64,000 nucleotides of DNA from Oscillospiraceae bacterium (GTDB taxonomy: Bacteria > Bacillota > Clostridia > TANB77 > CAG-508). The translations under genes were made by a program, and so were the position numbers. Under the pieces are notes generated by a model, which worked only from the letters and a program-made list of their open reading frames with translations, had not been told where the DNA came from and searched no databases. The stretch lies in assembly GCA_009778695.1 (NCBI GenBank), contig WRFS01000007.1, positions 7,753 through 71,752 on the forward strand, given 5' to 3'. Shown in pieces: positions 827 through 49,372 of this stretch; position 1 is the stretch's first letter, and each line of letters begins with the position of its first letter.

Positions 827-1258
827 GTGAAAAGAATTTTAACATATGGAACATACGATTTGTTACATTATGGTCATATTCGATTATTAAAAAGAGCAAA
901 AGCAATGGGAGATTATTTAGTTGTTGCATTATCAACAGATGATTTTAATATTTTAAAAGGGAAAAAAGCATATCATGACTACGAAACAAGAAAAAATATG
1001 TTGGAAGCTTTAAGATATGTTGATTTAGTAATCCCAGAAGAAAATTGGGAACAAAAAGCAGACGATATAAAAAAATATCATATAGATACAGTTGTGATGG
1101 GTGGAGATTGGGCTGGTAGTGATAAATTTGAATATTTAAAAGAGCATTGTGATTTAGTTTATTTGGACAGAACGGAAGGTGTTTCAACTACAAAGATTAA
1201 GGAAGATTTGAACTTGCCAGGAGAAGATGAAGGTCTGGGCCCACTATTAAAAGTATAA
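827..1258 (+). CDS. tagD: Glycerol-3-phosphate cytidylyltransferase
   Basis: TYGTYDLLHYGHIRLLKRAK carries the cytidylyltransferase HxGH motif; size about 140 aa. AGGAG at 814-818 favours GTG 827 over the in-frame GTG 818. Confidence 0.88.
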   Translation: MKRILTYGTYDLLHYGHIRLLKRAKAMGDYLVVALSTDDFNILKGKKAYHDYETRKNMLEALRYVDLVIPEENWEQKADDIKKYHIDTVVMGGDWAGSDKFEYLKEHCDLVYLDRTEGVSTTKIKEDLNLPGEDEGLGPLLKV

Positions 1259-1282: not shown

Positions 1283-2089
1283 ATGTCAACATTAATTACG
1301 ATAATAAAAGAACATATATCATATAGAAGTCAAATTGTAAGATTAGCTAGGGCGGATTTAATTAAAACATACAGAGGAGCTGCTCTTGGATGGTTTTGGG
1401 CCATTATAAAGCCTGCAGTAACAATATTTGTATATTGGTTTGCATTTGAGATAGGATTAAGAGTTTCAGGGATGGTTGATAATTATCCATTTTTTTTATG
1501 GTTAATAGCAGGTATCTTACCATGGTTTTATATGAGTGATATGATAACGTTAGGAACAGATTGTGTTAGAAAAAACTCGCATTTGGTTACAAAAATGAAA
1601 TTTCCTGTTTCAGTAATACCAACATTTACAAATGTATCTAAAATGATTATTGAATTCTTGTTAATAATTATAACAATGATAATCTTTTTAGCTATGGGAT
1701 ATCCTCTAACTATATACATGATACAACTGCCAATATACATAATACTAATGTTTGTATTCTTTAATTGTTGGGCGTTATTTGCATCGTTTATTGCAGCAAT
1801 GAGCAAAGACTTCTCAAACCTCGTAAAATCCTTTGTAACAGCAGTATTTTGGTTGTCTGGAGTAATATGGAATGTAGACAATATCCATTCGCGAGCATTA
1901 AAATTGTTTTTAGATATCAATCCTGTAACATACATTACAACTGGGTTTAGAAATTGCTTTTTAGGACAAAAATGGTTTTTTCAAGAGCCCAAAGGAATGA
2001 TAGCATTTTTAATAATAACAGTAATAATGCTGATATTGGGATTATGGAGCTATAAAAAACTATACAAGGAAATTCCAGATGTGCTATAG
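1283..2089 (+). CDS. tagG: Teichoic-acid/polysaccharide ABC-2 type export permease
   Basis: 268 aa with about six hydrophobic segments, directly upstream of the cognate ATPase and downstream of tagD. Confidence 0.8.
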   Translation: MSTLITIIKEHISYRSQIVRLARADLIKTYRGAALGWFWAIIKPAVTIFVYWFAFEIGLRVSGMVDNYPFFLWLIAGILPWFYMSDMITLGTDCVRKNSHLVTKMKFPVSVIPTFTNVSKMIIEFLLIIITMIIFLAMGYPLTIYMIQLPIYIILMFVFFNCWALFASFIAAMSKDFSNLVKSFVTAVFWLSGVIWNVDNIHSRALKLFLDINPVTYITTGFRNCFLGQKWFFQEPKGMIAFLIITVIMLILGLWSYKKLYKEIPDVL

Positions 2090-2885: not shown

Positions 2886-5624
2886 TTGGAACAAGATGAT
2901 GAAAACTATAAATATAAATTTTCAGTAATTATACCAATTTATAATGTTGAAAAATATCTGAAAGAAGCCATAGATAGTGTTATAAAACAGACCATTGGAT
3001 TTAAGAAAAATATACAAATTATTTTAATAAATGATGGAAGCCCAGACAACAGCGAGGCTATTTGTGAAGAATATGTTGAAAAATATCCTGACAATATTAT
3101 ATACATAAAACAAAAAAATGCAGGGGTTAGTGCTGCAAGAAATAATGGAATGCAATATATTGAAGGTAAATATGTAAGCTTTTTAGATGCAGATGATAAA
3201 TGGGAGAAGACTGTGTTTAAAAAAGCTTATAAAATGTTTGAAAAAAATGAAGATGTGGATGTAATTGGAGTTAGAATAAAATTTTTTGAAGCATCAAATA
3301 AATTTCATTATTTAGATTATAAGTTTAATAGAGATAAAGTAATAAATATTTTAAAAGAATATAATCATCTTCAGCTAGCTGTTACATCAGCGTTATTTAA
3401 AGCATCAGCGATTAAAGATGTAAGGTATGACGAAAAATTAAAATATGCCGAAGATTCAAAATTCATTTTTAATGTTTTAATTAAAAAGTGTAATTTGGGA
3501 ATTATTGCATCTGCCAAACATTTATATAGAAAAAGATATTCTGATGATTCGGCAATACAAAGAAAGAAACAAGACTTTAGTTGGTGTACAGTTGTACCGT
3601 ATAATTGTTATAAATATGCATATGAAAAATCAATAGAAAAATTTGGGAAAGTGATTTCTTATGTTCAATATTATGTTGCAAATGAATATTATTGGGCTCT
3701 TAAAGAATATAAACCGGGGATTTTAGACGAAGAGACCTTACATAAATATTTCGAAGTTACGAAAGAATTATTTAAAGGGATAGAAGACAAAATAATTACA
3801 GATAGGTTATTTTCTGATTATTTATATAGAACTTACTTCCTATCTTTAAAACATAAAAAAGATATAACAAAAGAATTAATAGTTCAGAATAATAAACTGT
3901 ATTACTATGATTCTTGTGTATATGATTTTGGTATTAATGATAATAATAAGATTCTTGTAATAAATAATTTAAATTATGAAAATGATGAATTAACCTTTGA
4001 AGGTCAAGTGGGTTGTAATATTCCAAGAAATATGTATAAGATGTATGCAATTACCAGTGAAAAAAAATATGAAGTGAACTTATACGAAACAAATTTAGAC
4101 AATAAGTATGGATTTGATGATATATTGTACGGACGTAAATACGGGTTTAATATCACTTTACCAATAAATATAAAACAAATTAAATTTGTATTGGAGCTAA
4201 AAGAAAAAGGGAGTATTTCATTACCTTTAAATTTCACTACAAATTCAAGATTAACAAGAAGTAGAATAAATTATACTATTAGGGGAGAAAAATTGCTTTA
4301 TGTGAAAAGTCCAGTTATACAGCTTATTAATAAAAAAGGAAATGTAATTAAATTTAAATTTTTATATGCTTTGCAATTATTAGCAAAGGCTAAATTTAAA
4401 GTTTTATTTACAAGAAGCTTATATTATATATTAAAACCATTTTATAGAAAAGAAATATGGATAATATCTGATAGACGTAATACAGCTGGGGATAACGGAA
4501 TGCACTTATTTAAATATTTGTGTGAAAAAGAAAAGTCAAAAAATATACAACCATATTTTACTGTTGATAAGAATTCGGTTGATTATGGGAAGATGAAACA
4601 AATTGGGAAAACCGTTGCTATCAATTCGTTAATGTACAAATTATTATTTTTGATGTCGGAGAAATTTATTTCTTCTCAAGCGGATAATTGGGCTTTTGAT
4701 ACTTTTGGAGATGATGAGATTTATTATAGAAATTTACTTAAATTTGATTTTATATTTTTACAACATGGAATTACACATAATGATGTATCAAGCTGGTTGC
4801 ATAAATTAAAAAAGAATATAAAAAAATTTATTACTGCTTCAGAACTAGAGTATAATTCAATAGTTAATGGTTCTTATGGATACACAAGTAGAGAAGTAGT
4901 TTTAACAGGATTTCCAAGGTATGATAATTTATTAGATGAAAAAGAAAATATAATCGCAATTATGCCAACATGGAGATCAAACTTAGTTGGTAAGTATGAT
5001 AAAACTGCAATGATAAGGGAGTATAATAAACTATTTGTTAAATCAGATTACTTTAAATTCTTTAGCGAATTATTAAGAGATAGAAAATTAATTGAAAAAT
5101 TAGAGAGATATGGATATAAAATAGAATTTGTGCTTCATCCAGCTACTTTAACTCAAGTAGTTGACTTTAAAAATATTGAAAATGAGTATATAAGTATTTT
5201 AAAAGAGGGTATTGATTACCAAGAAATATTTAAAAAATCCGCATTACTAGTAACAGATTATTCAAGCGTAGCTTTTGATTTTGCTTATTTAAGGAAGCCA
5301 GTTATGTATAGTCAATTTGATTTTGAGGCGTTTTATGCACAACATGTGCATGATAAGGGTTATTTTGATTATGCAAGAGACGGATTTGGACCAGTTACGG
5401 ACACATACGAAGATACCATAAATAAAATAATTGGGTTTATAGAAAACGATTGTAAAATAGATGATATGTATTTAGAAAGAATAAATAAATTTTATAAATT
5501 TAATGATCGAAATAATTGCAAAAGAGTATATGATGCAATTTTGAATGATAAACAAATTGATATAAAGGAGAAAAATTATGCAAAAACAAATAACACAAAC
5601 AATCGCCAACGAATTAAACATTAA
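2886..5624 (+). CDS. Bifunctional GT2 glycosyltransferase / CDP-glycerol glycerophosphotransferase (TagF/TarF-like)
   Basis: N-terminal GT2 signature (FSVIIPIYNVEKYL, LDADD). C-terminal half has TagB/TagF-type motifs (FLQHGI, PTWR, VLHP). 912 aa. Confidence 0.75.
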   Translation: MEQDDENYKYKFSVIIPIYNVEKYLKEAIDSVIKQTIGFKKNIQIILINDGSPDNSEAICEEYVEKYPDNIIYIKQKNAGVSAARNNGMQYIEGKYVSFLDADDKWEKTVFKKAYKMFEKNEDVDVIGVRIKFFEASNKFHYLDYKFNRDKVINILKEYNHLQLAVTSALFKASAIKDVRYDEKLKYAEDSKFIFNVLIKKCNLGIIASAKHLYRKRYSDDSAIQRKKQDFSWCTVVPYNCYKYAYEKSIEKFGKVISYVQYYVANEYYWALKEYKPGILDEETLHKYFEVTKELFKGIEDKIITDRLFSDYLYRTYFLSLKHKKDITKELIVQNNKLYYYDSCVYDFGINDNNKILVINNLNYENDELTFEGQVGCNIPRNMYKMYAITSEKKYEVNLYETNLDNKYGFDDILYGRKYGFNITLPINIKQIKFVLELKEKGSISLPLNFTTNSRLTRSRINYTIRGEKLLYVKSPVIQLINKKGNVIKFKFLYALQLLAKAKFKVLFTRSLYYILKPFYRKEIWIISDRRNTAGDNGMHLFKYLCEKEKSKNIQPYFTVDKNSVDYGKMKQIGKTVAINSLMYKLLFLMSEKFISSQADNWAFDTFGDDEIYYRNLLKFDFIFLQHGITHNDVSSWLHKLKKNIKKFITASELEYNSIVNGSYGYTSREVVLTGFPRYDNLLDEKENIIAIMPTWRSNLVGKYDKTAMIREYNKLFVKSDYFKFFSELLRDRKLIEKLERYGYKIEFVLHPATLTQVVDFKNIENEYISILKEGIDYQEIFKKSALLVTDYSSVAFDFAYLRKPVMYSQFDFEAFYAQHVHDKGYFDYARDGFGPVTDTYEDTINKIIGFIENDCKIDDMYLERINKFYKFNDRNNCKRVYDAILNDKQIDIKEKNYAKTNNTNNRQRIKH

Positions 5625-7824
5625 CGAATCGCAAGTAAAAAGCACGGTAGCTTTAATCGATGATGGAAACACAATTCCATTCATTGCACGTTATAGAAAA
5701 GAAGCAACGGGGGGATTAAGCGATGAAACATTGAGAAATCTATATGACAGATTAACATATTTACGAAATTTAGAAGAACGAAAAGCCGAAGTTTCAAGGT
5801 TAATCGAAGAACAAGGCAAGCTCACAGAAGAGCTTCAAAAAGCAATTGAAAACGCAATTACTTTAGCCGAAATAGAAGATATTTATAGGCCATATAAGCA
5901 AAAAAAGAGAACGAGAGCTACAATTGCAAAAGAAAAAGGATTAGAGCCACTTGCTACTATTATTTATGAACAAACAGAAACAACACCATTAAATAAAATT
6001 GCAGAGCAATTCTTAAACCCAGAAAAAGAAGTAAATACGGTTGAAGAGGCGATTGCTGGGGCATTAGATATTATTGCAGAAAATATTTCGGATGAGGCAA
6101 GATTTAGAAAAAACATCAAAAGTATGTGTTTTAGAGAAGCGGTTATTTGGGCGAAAGCAGCAAAAGAAGAAAAGTCTGTATATGAGATGTATTATGATTA
6201 TTCTGAGGCGATTTTAAGAATGCCAAGCCATAGAATTTTAGCAATAAACAGAGGTGAAAAAGAAGAATTTTTAAAAGTAAAATTAGAAAAACCAGAAGAA
6301 AAAATTATAGAAATGATTGAAAATTACATAATTAAAAAAGATAATAATCAATTTACGAACATATTAAAAGACACTATTTTAGATAGTTACAAGAGATTAA
6401 TCGAACCATCTATTGAGAGGGAAATAAGAGCAGACTTAACAGAAAAGGCAGAGGAGAAAGCAATAAAGGTGTTTGGACAAAATGCAAAACAGCTATTGCT
6501 TCAACCACCTATGAAAAATGTTAGAGTAATTGGATTCGACCCAGCATATAGAACGGGATGCAAAATAGCTGTAATAGACGAAACAGGCAAAGTTTTGGAT
6601 ACTAATACAATTTATCCAACAGAGCCTCAAAATGATGTTATCGGTGCGAAAAAGACATTGCTTGGATTAATAAATAAGCATAAAGTAAATATAATTGCTA
6701 TTGGGAATGGTACAGCTTCTAGGGAATCTGAACAATTCGTTTCAGAGGTGTTAAAAGAATGCAAAGAAAAAGTATATTACGCAATTGTAAGTGAAGCTGG
6801 GGCTTCAGTTTATTCAGCATCAAAGCTGGCAACAGAGGAATATCCGGATATAAACGTTTCAATAAGAGGTGCTATTTCAATAGCTAGAAGGTTGCAAGAC
6901 CCATTAGCTGAATTGGTAAAAATAGACCCAAAAGCAATAGGTGTAGGGCAATACCAACATGACGTGAATCAAAAAACTTTATCTGAAAGCTTAACTGGAG
7001 TGGTAGAAGATGCAGTAAATTCAGTAGGCGTTGATGTAAACACAGCAACTCCATCACTACTTACATATGTAGCTGGAATAAATTCAGGCATTGCAAAAAA
7101 TATAGTAATGTATAGAGATGAAAATGGAAAATTTACTGAACGAAAACAGTTGTTAAAAGTAGCTAAATTAGGCAAAAGTGCATTTGAACAATGTGCAGGT
7201 TTTACAAGGATATTTGGTGGTAAAAATTTATTAGAAATGACAGCAGTTCATCCAGAAAGTTATAAGGCAACAGAACAATTACTAAGCAAATTGGGTTACA
7301 CCGTGAAGGATTTGGAAGATAAAGAAAAATTCGAACAATTAAAAGGGTCATTAAAAAATTTGTTACCCGTAGGGGCGAGCATTGCTCGTCCGAACGTAAC
7401 AAATTCAGGCGTGACGAATTCAGGCATGACAAATCCGGACGAGCAATGCTCGCCCCTACAAGAAACGGCAGAAGAATTAGGTATAGGCGAGATGACATTG
7501 TCTGATATTATAAACGAATTATTAAAACCAGGGCGTGATCCAAGAGAGAGTTCACCTAAACCAATATTAAGGGCAGACATATTAAAGTTTGAAGATTTAA
7601 GAGAAGGCATGGTGTTAAATGGAACCGTAAGAAATGTAATTGATTTTGGTGCATTTGTGGATATTGGCGTAAAAAATGATGGCTTAGTACATATTTCTGA
7701 ATTAGCAGACAAATACGTAAAAAGCCCATCAGAGATTGTTTCTGTTGGAGATGTGGTAAAGGTGAAAGTTATTGGATTGGATATGGATAGGCACAAGGTA
7801 AAGCTCAGTATGAAAAATGTTTGA
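5578..7824 (+). CDS. tex: Transcription accessory protein Tex (S1 RNA-binding domain protein)
   Basis: IPFIARYRKE N-terminal motif, YqgF-like and HhH regions, C-terminal S1 domain (GMVLNGTVRNVIDFGAFVDIG). RBS AAGGAG. Carries a palindromic insert at 7369-7459. Confidence 0.9.
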   Translation: MQKQITQTIANELNINESQVKSTVALIDDGNTIPFIARYRKEATGGLSDETLRNLYDRLTYLRNLEERKAEVSRLIEEQGKLTEELQKAIENAITLAEIEDIYRPYKQKKRTRATIAKEKGLEPLATIIYEQTETTPLNKIAEQFLNPEKEVNTVEEAIAGALDIIAENISDEARFRKNIKSMCFREAVIWAKAAKEEKSVYEMYYDYSEAILRMPSHRILAINRGEKEEFLKVKLEKPEEKIIEMIENYIIKKDNNQFTNILKDTILDSYKRLIEPSIEREIRADLTEKAEEKAIKVFGQNAKQLLLQPPMKNVRVIGFDPAYRTGCKIAVIDETGKVLDTNTIYPTEPQNDVIGAKKTLLGLINKHKVNIIAIGNGTASRESEQFVSEVLKECKEKVYYAIVSEAGASVYSASKLATEEYPDINVSIRGAISIARRLQDPLAELVKIDPKAIGVGQYQHDVNQKTLSESLTGVVEDAVNSVGVDVNTATPSLLTYVAGINSGIAKNIVMYRDENGKFTERKQLLKVAKLGKSAFEQCAGFTRIFGGKNLLEMTAVHPESYKATEQLLSKLGYTVKDLEDKEKFEQLKGSLKNLLPVGASIARPNVTNSGVTNSGMTNPDEQCSPLQETAEELGIGEMTLSDIINELLKPGRDPRESSPKPILRADILKFEDLREGMVLNGTVRNVIDFGAFVDIGVKNDGLVHISELADKYVKSPSEIVSVGDVVKVKVIGLDMDRHKVKLSMKNV
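7369..7459. repeat. REPIN-like inverted doublet of GTAG-headed GC-rich hairpins, inside the tex coding frame
   Basis: GTAGGGGCGAGCATTGCTCGTCCG (7369-7392) and its exact reverse complement (7436-7459). The spacer holds three 15-nt tandem units (GTAACAAATTCAGGC-like). Confidence 0.9.
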
Positions 7825-7844
7825 AAAATATTAAAAAACGCATT

Positions 7845-7969
7845 GTCATTCTGAGACTTACTTCGTAGTCCAACTTACGAAGAATCTTACTTTATCTATT
7901 TTCATTTGTATACCTACCATTTAGTAAGATTCTTCGTGAGCAAGGCTTTGTGGCAACGCTCAGAATGAC
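7845..7969. repeat. Palindromic element, GTCATTCTGAG...CTCAGAATGAC family, copy 1
   Basis: Termini GTCATTCTGAG (7845-7855) and CTCAGAATGAC (7959-7969); inner arms CGAAGAATCTTAC / GTAAGATTCTTCG. Lies between tex and a convergent small ORF. Confidence 0.85.
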
Positions 7970-7991
7970 ACCTACTTGTTTTTATTCTTAT

Positions 7992-8018
7992 GTAGAGGGC
8001 GTCACGTTTGACACCCTC
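7992..8018. repeat. GTAG-headed GC-rich hairpin (terminator-like)
   Basis: GTAG-AGGGCGTCA-CGTT-TGACACCCTC, a 10-bp stem with one mismatch. The same GAGGGYGTC/GACACCC arms enclose the palindromic elements at 57490 and 58826. Confidence 0.6.
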
Positions 8019-8404: not shown

Positions 8405-8564
8405 ATTTAACAGTCTAGTCCAAAATTTCCGCCTCTGGAGTATAGTATATCTTTTAAAAAGGCTCCTCCAAGTCTTCGAAGACTCCATGGGCCTCAAAGG
8501 GCTGTCGTTCACCTTTTTAAAAGATATACTATACTCCAGAGGCTATTTTGCTGGAAAGTGTTAA
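8405..8564 (+). repeat. Conserved-loop long hairpin element, copy 1 of 5
   Basis: Inner hairpin 8428-8542: 32-bp stem closing the loop GGCTCCTCCAAG..CTCAAAGGGCTGTCGTTCACC. Outer arms TTTAACA / TGTTAAA. Confidence 0.9.
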
Positions 8565-48270: not shown

Positions 48271-48416
48271 TTAACATGTCCGCTTGTGGTGGTTAGTATA
48301 TATTTTAAAAAGGCTCCTCCAAGCCTCCGAAGACTCCATGGGCCTCAAAGGGCTGTCGTTCACCTTTTTAAAATATATACTAACCACCACAAGCTACTCT
48401 ACAAAAAAAGTGTTAA
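48271..48416 (+). repeat. Conserved-loop long hairpin element, copy 3 of 5
   Basis: Inner hairpin 48280-48394, stem GCTTGTGGTGGTTAGTATATATTTTAAAAAGG and its complement. Outer arms TTAACA / TGTTAA. Confidence 0.9.
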
Positions 48417-49224: not shown

Positions 49225-49372
49225 ATGGGTTAATCTAAAGTTTCCGCCTCCTTAAGTATAGTATAGCTTTTAAAAAGGCTCCTCCAAGTCAAGGGGTAAT
49301 CCGTATGCCTCAAAGGGCTGTCGTTCACCTTTTTAAAAGCTATACTATACTTAAGAAGGCTACTTTGTATGA
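49225..49372 (+). repeat. Conserved-loop long hairpin element, copy 4 of 5 (variant loop)
   Basis: Inner hairpin 49244-49360 with one stem mismatch. A 20-nt loop sub-segment is replaced by an equal-length different sequence (TCAAGGGGTAATCCGTATGC). Confidence 0.85.

Follow-up and report, generated by a model that had tools for sequence, protein, structure and literature searches.

A palindromic insert in the tex gene of an Oscillospiraceae bacterium is probably a pair of GTAG-footed REP hairpins

A 64-kb stretch of contig WRFS01000007.1 (a gut Oscillospiraceae bacterium, assembly GCA_009778695.1), here called the window, carries a 91-nt palindromic element at positions 7369-7459, inside the coding sequence of tex (5578-7824, + strand). 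What kind of element is this, and how does it come to lie in frame within a housekeeping gene? A preliminary description of the window took it for a REPIN, that is, a doublet of REPs (repetitive extragenic palindromes) replicating as a unit, of the kind mobilised by REP-associated tyrosine transposases (RAYTs). We find that the element is very probably a head-outward homodimer of GTAG REPs (the 'HH' dimer of Di Nocera), with arms that match the REPs of RAYT/TnpA_REP subclass 2.4 (Bertels group 4). This genome was read over ~76 kb in all (contig positions 49596-125423).

Direct inspection of the sequence confirmed that GTAGGGGCGAGCATTGCTCGTCCG at 7369-7392 has its exact reverse complement at 7436-7459. 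The element is a pair of identical hairpins with their feet outward, each with a GTAG foot, an 8-bp stem and a 3-nt loop, on either side of a 45-nt spacer. The left arm (7369-7391, + strand) reads GTAG followed by GGGCGAGC-ATT-GCTCGTCC, the GT[AG]G foot sitting directly 5' of the stem; the stem contains one G.T pair, and the arm is translated VGASIARP. The right arm (7437-7459, - strand) is the left arm exactly inverted, with its GTAG foot on the - strand, and is translated DEQCSPL. The spacer (7392-7436) holds a tandem array of a 15-nt unit at 7399-7434, which amounts to 2.4 copies with an 85% match rather than the three units previously described. As single-stranded DNA (ssDNA), the left arm folds at -6.7 kcal/mol (z -4.2). 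The complement of an arm folds at -5.1 kcal/mol against -6.7 kcal/mol for the GTAG strand, which is the more stable because its G.T pair becomes an A.C mismatch on the complement. This asymmetry is as expected for an element recognised as folded ssDNA. The two arms together pair into a perfect 24-bp stem, and a 109-nt ssDNA segment containing them folds at -35.6 kcal/mol. The sequence GTAGGGG leaves two of its three reading frames open, and CCCCTAC has a stop in none of its frames. An Rfam scan of the 64-kb window found no family at gathering score, neither tRNA nor riboswitch nor leader; the doublet gave only weak microRNA and FourU hairpin noise.

The host gene encodes an RNA-binding transcriptional accessory protein of 748 amino acids (aa), with the Pfam domains Tex_N, Tex_central_region, Tex_YqgF, HHH_3, HHH_9 (in two parts) and S1, and with a match to the Pseudomonas aeruginosa Tex structures (PDB 2oce/3bzc) at E=6e-177. 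Translation confirmed that the open reading frame (ORF) stays open through the insert, which it reads as LPVGASIARPNVTNSGVTNSGMTNPDEQCSPLQ; the predicted peptide from the insert region is VGASIARPNVTNSGVTNSGMTNPDEQCSPLQ. The insert does not lie in a plain interdomain linker, as had been proposed. Instead, HHH_9 is interrupted after position 40 of its 70-position profile. In the alignment with P. aeruginosa Tex the insert falls between residues 588 and 609 of that protein, which has 21 residues there against 56 in the window Tex. In an AlphaFold (AF2) model, residues 598-624 are coil, with a predicted local distance difference test score (pLDDT) of ~26, flanked by helices 582-593 and 626-634. 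The split HHH_9 match, the P. aeruginosa alignment and the modelled coil therefore point to a loop within the helical domain ahead of S1, and the insert is predicted to add about 30 disordered residues between two helices there.

To place the insert in time, the site was compared in the 120 best Tex homologues. In 97 of the 120 the sequence runs "...LKNV|DI..." directly, with no insert, and P. aeruginosa Tex also lacks the segment. A 7-residue extra (LIPxNxF) stands at the site in 20 of the 120, and the remaining three, namely the window Tex and its relatives at 90% and 93% identity, have a long insert. In a neighbour-joining tree the three long-insert sequences cluster together and adjoin the 7-residue clade, with insert-free sequences basal to both. 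Relative to an empty-site orthologue (locus L242; L numbers are our locus handles), the net gain is 90 nt. The alignment thus bears out the proposed lineage-specific insertion of ~30 aa, and the segment is supported as a derived one. We offer as a suggestion only that the 7-aa extra, 'LIPTNHS' in relatives at 76-77% identity, may be a REP footprint, since ATCCCTACAAA resembles GCCCCTACAAG. Might the insert have arisen in assembly or binning, through a chimeric join in tex or a repeat collapsed into it? REPs do break and mis-join metagenome assemblies, and the many copies found at contig ends in other loci suggest such breakage. Nevertheless, the insert sequence is identical in two assemblies made by different pipelines (ENA ERZ27257295 contig k141_933053; Logan SRR10512950), the ORF is open with Tex homology on either side, and the relatives at 90% and 93% protein identity have inserts at the same codon. 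An artefact is therefore barely credible.

The arm is not confined to tex. At three or fewer mismatches there are four arm matches in the window, versus none in dinucleotide-preserving shuffles of it, the control used for chance. A strict census, which required a GT[AG]G foot followed directly by a GC-rich stem of 7 bp or more with a 3-8 nt loop, found nine GTAG-footed hairpins in the 64 kb versus 0.05 in shuffles. With a decayed copy at 18201 and a GTAA-headed solo at 59080 added, the window holds two HH dimers and seven solos, and 7 of its 11 copies are intergenic. The second head-outward homodimer (10436-10533) and the near-identical solo (59080-59103) are both real, as first described. The dimer lies between divergent genes and has arms GTAGGGGCGAACATCGTTCGTCC around an unrelated 52-nt spacer; its arms are identical to each other, differ from the tex arms at 3-4 positions, and show a compensatory stem change from G-C to A-T. 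The solo (- strand) has a GTAA head and one mismatch to the tex-arm family, and sits between the convergent dnaJ and AAA_14 ATPase genes. The GTAG is on the + strand in six of the seven solo copies, and the GC skew of the + strand is positive over almost the whole window. By analogy with IS200/IS605, and on a small number of copies, the active GTAG strand may be the lagging-strand template.

The same arms were sought elsewhere by scanning one genome per species for GTARGGGCGARCNNNGYTCGYCC, which gave at least 119 loci, and by scanning metagenomes for a wobble variant of the arm, which gave at least 111. Loci in both scans were chosen for carrying the arm, so the sampling is conditional on arm presence, and the counts given here for other loci are among the matches listed. 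The genome loci were mostly from metagenome-assembled genomes (MAGs) of gut Clostridia (Oscillospiraceae, Ruminococcus, Acutalibacteraceae and others), with scattered loci in other phyla. Sample names point to ruminant, rabbit and human guts, and some of the samples, going by their names, we take to be termite gut. The identical 23-mer GTAGGGGCGAGCATTGCTCGTCC spans contigs of 28% to 67% GC, and near-identical 23-nt hairpins are common to Clostridia, other phyla, and contigs labelled as conjugative elements or viruses. In IMG/VR, 85 stretches carry the wider arm pattern, with 6-8 copies on some of them; a RAYT search of the viral contigs (0.73 Mb) found none. The search pattern permitted all four combinations at the variable stem pair, and the pair is Watson-Crick (G-C or A-T) in 424 of 427 copies, so the matches are not chance. 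This shows selection on the hairpin, with structure rather than sequence conserved across hundreds of copies. The hairpin begins with GGG in 302 of 407.

Most of these copies lie outside genes: in loci below 50% GC, 202 of 217 lie outside long ORFs and ~7% inside. The intragenic screen was limited to GTAGGG feet and to loci below 50% GC. In-frame REPs were found in MnmG of a probable termite-gut Oscillospiraceae MAG (L120), where they form an HH dimer, in altronate dehydratase (L198), in Mfd of a Terriglobia MAG (L112) and, within the window, in mfd itself. Two intragenic 'ORFs' from this screen (L209 and L125) appear spurious. A screen at all GC contents was set aside, because GTGG heads and spurious ORFs from high-GC DNA dominated it.

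Is the doublet or the single hairpin the unit that moves? In a true REPIN, arm, spacer and arm would replicate whole, and the tex copy would descend from a master doublet at another genomic site. Both window doublets are homodimers with perfectly identical arms, as unit-wise copying or hairpin-templated repair would yield; the long hairpin is very stable as ssDNA; and HH dimers often have conserved spacers according to Di Nocera 2013 (PMC3733652). However, the spacers of the tex and 10436 doublets and of the tex doublet in L005 (the 93% relative) are mutually unrelated and recur nowhere in ~1.4 Mb of arm-bearing loci, where the recurrent parts are the 23-27 nt arms only. Pairs in the genome loci come in every orientation (74 HH, 42 tail-to-tail (TT) and 44 tandem), and in 68 of the 74 head-outward pairs one arm differs from the other. 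Across the three lineages with inserts at the orthologous tex site, moreover, the right arm keeps its type and the left arm is different in each. Unique spacers and singly recurring arms therefore identify the single REP as the repeated unit, with the present genome seen over the ~76 kb noted above. The preliminary REPIN reading is not supported by these comparisons, and we consider it improbable.

The same data bear on a MITE (miniature inverted-repeat transposable element) mobilised by a DDE transposase, which the terminal inverted repeats, the ~90-100 bp length and the two window copies of the same architecture would suit. A target-site duplication is absent at all five junction pairs compared (window tex, 10436, L003, L005 and L145). 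Each supposed terminal repeat forms a GTAG-footed palindrome of its own, the arms also occur solo and in all relative orientations, and the internal sequences are unrelated. Further, the associated enzyme is an HUH/Y1 protein. A MITE is thus very unlikely.

That enzyme is seen in other arm-bearing loci, which were searched for RAYTs with a loose motif regular expression and phmmer. At least five (L145, L017, L029, L060 and L143) contain RAYT-like ORFs beside or around arms of the same family. In the metagenome locus L145, an ORF with the motifs MPNHIH, WQ and YIENNP is bracketed, feet outward, by exact copies of the window arm, at 965-987 (+) and, as the reverse complement, at 1526-1548 (-). 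The L017 ORF comes from a 28%-GC Clostridia MAG, matches Pfam Y1_Tnp and has the motifs NHIH, WQ and YIRYNP. 'REP-associated tyrosine transposase' is the top-scoring NCBIfam family for both the L017 and the L145 ORF, and the former scores above the curated cut-off. The L029 ORF also matches Y1_Tnp, and that of L060 has the motifs NHVH, WQ and YIDTNP. In the RAYTs of L029, L060 and L143, REPs lie in frame, with the HUH motif on one side and the Y motif on the other. The RAYT bracketed by identical arms, together with the four others near arms, upholds the proposal that the tex hairpins are REPs of the RAYT kind.

Subclass 2.4 RAYTs have the motifs NH[IFV]H, WQ and YIxNNP, and their REPs have a GT[AG]G foot and a stem starting with three G-C pairs, a GGG/CCC stem bottom being called unique to the subclass (Quentin 2018, PMC6006769). 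In-frame REPs inside tnpA are typical of the subclass, and its phylogenetic spread is patchy (Quentin 2018, PMC6006769). Because the motifs, the foot and stem type, the in-frame tnpA REPs and the patchy spread all match, the arms are filed here as subclass-2.4-type GTAG REPs. Assignment of the RAYTs themselves to subclass 2.4 is putative, drawn from motifs and REP type rather than from a phylogeny.

Several observations weigh against reading the tex element as a subclass-2.4 REP homodimer. A Y1_Tnp/RAYT gene was absent from the window and from 12 kb of extra contig (~76 kb; motif regular expression and phmmer on all six-frame ORFs), so the search that the preliminary description had proposed leaves a cognate RAYT in this genome unproven. 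The organism of L145, which supplies the closest association of enzyme and arm, is far more GC-rich. The exact tex-arm family amounts to only five arms in 64 kb, and the strand bias rests on n=7. Confidence in the AF2 model of Tex is low overall (mean pLDDT 64). How the strands are cleaved and transferred is extrapolated, since biochemistry exists only for group 2 and 3 RAYTs (PMC8266576). Lastly, the 45-nt tex spacer is unique; it may have come from a donor locus or grown by slippage, as its tandem units suggest.

More surprising is the turnover at the tex site, where three sister lineages have different arm pairs. The window has a left arm of the GGGCGAGC type and an identical, inverted right arm, and its ORF is open. 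In L005/L006 (93% protein identity; JGI 3300009784 and ENA ERZ27257292, two assemblies that may come from the same reads), the left arm is GGGCGCA-TGAT-TGCGCCC and the right arm is GGGCGAAC...GTTCGCCC, which is the variant seen in the 10436 doublet of the window; the ORF is split into 612 aa and 150 aa. In L003/L004 (90%), the left arm is a decayed member of the 20414/30376 family and the right arm is decayed, of the GCGAAC type, and the ORF is open. The L005 spacer is unrelated to the window tex spacer, while the L003 spacer has AAATTCAGGCG in common with it. In the heterodimer that splits tex in L005/L006 (~2040-2150), the G-TAG of the left arm puts a stop into the downstream frame; translation could restart at an ATG within the same arm.

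The window arms are too perfect for old neutral sequence. Third-codon-position identity in tex is 0.75 between the window and L005 and 0.68 between the window and L003, and ~6-8 changes are expected under neutrality in 48 nt of arms in the window lineage. None is found that disturbs the hairpins or the 24/24 complementarity; therefore the arms were renewed after the lineages split, or are under constraint. Renewal could have come about through a new REP inserting next to a resident one, through ectopic conversion, or through repair of the long hairpin. A comparable case, from Di Nocera 2013 (PMC3733652), is that of different REPs near the same recB site in two Xanthomonas species. The tex site is in effect a natural time series, with perfect arms, frame-breaking mixed arms, decayed arms and possibly a 7-residue remnant, and could serve to ask how REPs are renewed in place.

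Another reading is co-option, in which the 24-bp mRNA stem or a DNA cruciform would regulate tex, as an RNase III site or an S1-uncoupling roadblock, or in which the loop would matter to the protein. The doublet lies in a 151-nt tex mRNA segment whose fold of -62 kcal/mol (z -7.3) contains a perfect 24-bp stem, the arms have stayed perfect despite ~25-32% third-position divergence from the sister lineages, and in L005 the same site divides the 612-aa ORF from a 150-aa S1 ORF. Recent REP activity or hairpin repair explains perfect arms equally well, however. The encoded peptide varies, with three sequences in three lineages, L003 tolerates decayed arms in an open ORF, and the same hairpins are dispersed in intergenic DNA, a conjugative element and unrelated genes; for these reasons co-option is given a low probability, lower than that of a REPIN. 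The tex element is most likely a tolerated selfish passenger rather than a functional Tex module.

How would a GTAG REP homodimer reach tex and persist there? In vitro, group 2 and 3 RAYTs bind folded single-stranded REPs and cleave at a nearby CT or CA (PMC8266576). Extrapolating from the RAYTs of E. coli, S. maltophilia and Marinomonas, a RAYT acting in trans would bind the folded REP on ssDNA, most likely the lagging-strand template. It would use GTAG as a guide or identity element, cut nearby and rejoin strands, and the rejoining would seed REPs at new sites, often inverted beside a resident REP. An ancestor of a small Oscillospiraceae lineage would have gained the element in tex, and later the arms would have been renewed or homogenised and the spacer enlarged through slippage. 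The element would survive in tex because it adds a net 90 nt, a multiple of three, and because the frame of tex does not read the TAG of its GTAG as a codon; which intragenic copies survive is a matter of filtering. A broader proposal is possible, though we hold it to be doubtful: that the RAYT(2.4)/REP system of gut anaerobes spreads horizontally and is still active, rather than being vertical and species-specific, that new REPs land preferentially beside residents, and that the system extends, splits and fuses housekeeping genes. If so, a colonised site such as tex would keep swapping arms, the splits would be mfd here and tex in the sister lineage, and the fusion would be mfd-trmH (see below).

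The nearest described relatives are the GTAG REPs surveyed by Di Nocera 2013 (PMC3733652). These have GTAG at the foot of a GC-rich stem of 6-13 bp with a 2-4 nt loop, G.T stem pairs, and complementary stem changes between subfamilies. They occur as solos and as HH or TT dimers, homo- and heterodimeric, with 20-100 bp spacers, and they are mostly intergenic, with a minority in ORFs, notably of repair and RNA-binding genes. All of this is like the elements here. Unlike them, the surveyed REPs were found in Proteobacteria, Cyanobacteria, Chloroflexi and the Planctomycetes-Verrucomicrobia-Chlamydiae (PVC) group, and not in Firmicutes, and tex and mfd are not named as targets in its available text, 'mfd' being absent from the main text. 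The subclass 2.4 REPtrons (PMC6006769, which equal group 4 of Bertels 2017) resemble L145 in their motifs (NHIH, WQ, YIENNP in L145) and in having REPs that flank the gene, but they are abundant in Cyanobacteria and Bacteroidetes and scattered elsewhere, whereas those found here are mainly in gut Clostridia MAGs.

The Pseudomonas and E. coli REPINs (Bertels and Rainey; RAYT groups 2 and 3) likewise consist of two inverted REPs that form one long hairpin, and a single-copy RAYT is presumed to move them in trans. They replicate as a unit with a conserved spacer, however, and are species-specific and vertical, whereas here spacers are unique, arms assort independently and one 23-mer spans 28%-67% GC. 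Rickettsia palindromic elements also place in-frame palindromic repeats in housekeeping genes, adding tolerated surface peptides, but have no known transposase and no sequence relationship to the tex element. Such a reading was rejected, as the tag here is GTAG and the unit 23 nt, against a CGTC tag (assigned to RPE-1 in PMC3733652) and a length of 100-150 bp. IS200/IS605 elements and palindrome-associated transposable elements (PATEs) share an HUH/Y1 enzyme acting on folded single-stranded hairpins, a 5' guide tetranucleotide, the lack of target duplication and a lagging-strand-template bias. In IS200/IS605, unlike here, the two ends form hairpins that differ from each other and point the same way, and the target is a defined tetra- or pentanucleotide. 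Here the feet are outward and the hairpins equivalent, and NCBIfam scores the REP-associated tyrosine transposase family above the IS200 transposase; the IS200/PATE reading was rejected on these grounds.

What, then, is new? In-frame REPs are known from other phyla, and the tex case is not a new kind of element. The view that in-frame colonisation is otherwise rare has to be given up: many ORFs are decorated by GTAG or CGTC REPs, with enrichment for repair and RNA-binding functions, as listed in Di Nocera 2013 (PMC3733652), in-frame REPs are typical of subclass 2.4 (PMC6006769), and further cases were found here. The statement that such elements are undescribed in Firmicutes stands, there being none in the PMC3733652 survey and no paper found that joins REPIN, RAYT and Firmicutes. 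Of Clostridia RAYTs, only group 1 is mentioned in Bertels 2017, and a literature search on the arm sequence returned unrelated primers only. The novelty thus seems to lie in the host group, apparently undescribed in Clostridia, and in the detailed same-site tex series. Work on REP/RAYT systems has been confined almost entirely to Proteobacteria and Cyanobacteria, and the present loci suggest that gut Clostridia commonly carry a system of the subclass-2.4 type. There are practical consequences as well. REP hairpins yield recurrent pseudo-peptides (VGASIARP, GEHSSPLQ, CRGRRPRRP) in protein databases, break metagenome assemblies, and can split or fuse annotated genes.

The remaining window copies are solos. 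A GTAG-footed hairpin with a different stem, GTAGAGGGCGTCACGTTTGACACCCT, lies downstream of tex (7992-8017, +). The decayed copy, GTAGGGGCGGGTTCCCATACTCGTCC, is at 18201-18226 (+), where mfd shifts frame and splits into two ORFs, and a solo of another stem family is at 20414-20439 (+), at the 3' end of mfd, where it is translated CRGRRPRRP and the ORF continues into a SpoU/TrmH methylase gene. Two solos in the same orientation (30329-30353 and 30376-30401, +) and a third, GTAGGGGTAGCTGCCCTCAGCTACCC (32554-32579, +), are intergenic within a conjugative element. The copies at 20414, 30329, 30376 and 32554 have differing stems on the same GTAG+GGG foot, so the window holds a hairpin superfamily that is conserved in the foot and variable in the stem.

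The mfd gene (16953-21273) is found as two ORFs, 16953-18257, which corresponds to E. coli Mfd residues 40-244, and 18322-21273, which corresponds to residues 474-1123, with the frame change falling exactly across the decayed GTAG hairpin. The split mfd may be a pseudogene or a two-piece Mfd. The solo REP at 20414 is translated without a stop, and the mfd ORF therefore runs in frame into the SpoU/TrmH rRNA methylase. The methylase has its own ribosome binding site and an ATG at 20477; the apparent Mfd-TrmH fusion ORF is 983 aa (REP region 20414-20480).

Other repeats were seen in the window. The 10436 doublet is nested in a perfect 21-nt inverted repeat, TAAAAAATGCAAAAAATAGGT (10396-10416 and 10562-10582), and so forms part of a larger palindrome, which is flanked by a divergent DnaB-like gene and an extracytoplasmic function (ECF) sigma factor gene. 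A second inverted-repeat family, with termini TGTCATTCTGAG...CTCAGAATGACA, is present at 7844-7970, just downstream of the tex stop, and at 57507-57606, upstream of dnaJ; the inner parts are ~70% alike. A ~113-nt element is present in five intergenic copies (8431-8543, 21894-22008, 48282-48394, 49246-49360 and 62189-62303). It has a conserved 49-nt core, CTCCTCCAAGCCTCCGAAGACTCCATGGGCCTCAAAGGGCTGTCGTTCA, between arms of 32-34 nt that differ among copies and are perfectly complementary within a copy (97% in one). Its RNA folds at about -62 kcal/mol (z -10.7), with no Rfam match. Finally, the block at ~24700-47300 resembles a conjugative element, with genes for a topoisomerase, several type IV secretion system (T4SS) pilin-like proteins, a VirB4/TraG-type ATPase, an NlpC/P60 hydrolase, and 964-aa and 1731-aa proteins that have no Pfam match. 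Its intergenic spacers hold the solo REPs at 30329, 30376 and 32554, and the motif AGGGCTGGTGCCCC lies downstream of two of them.

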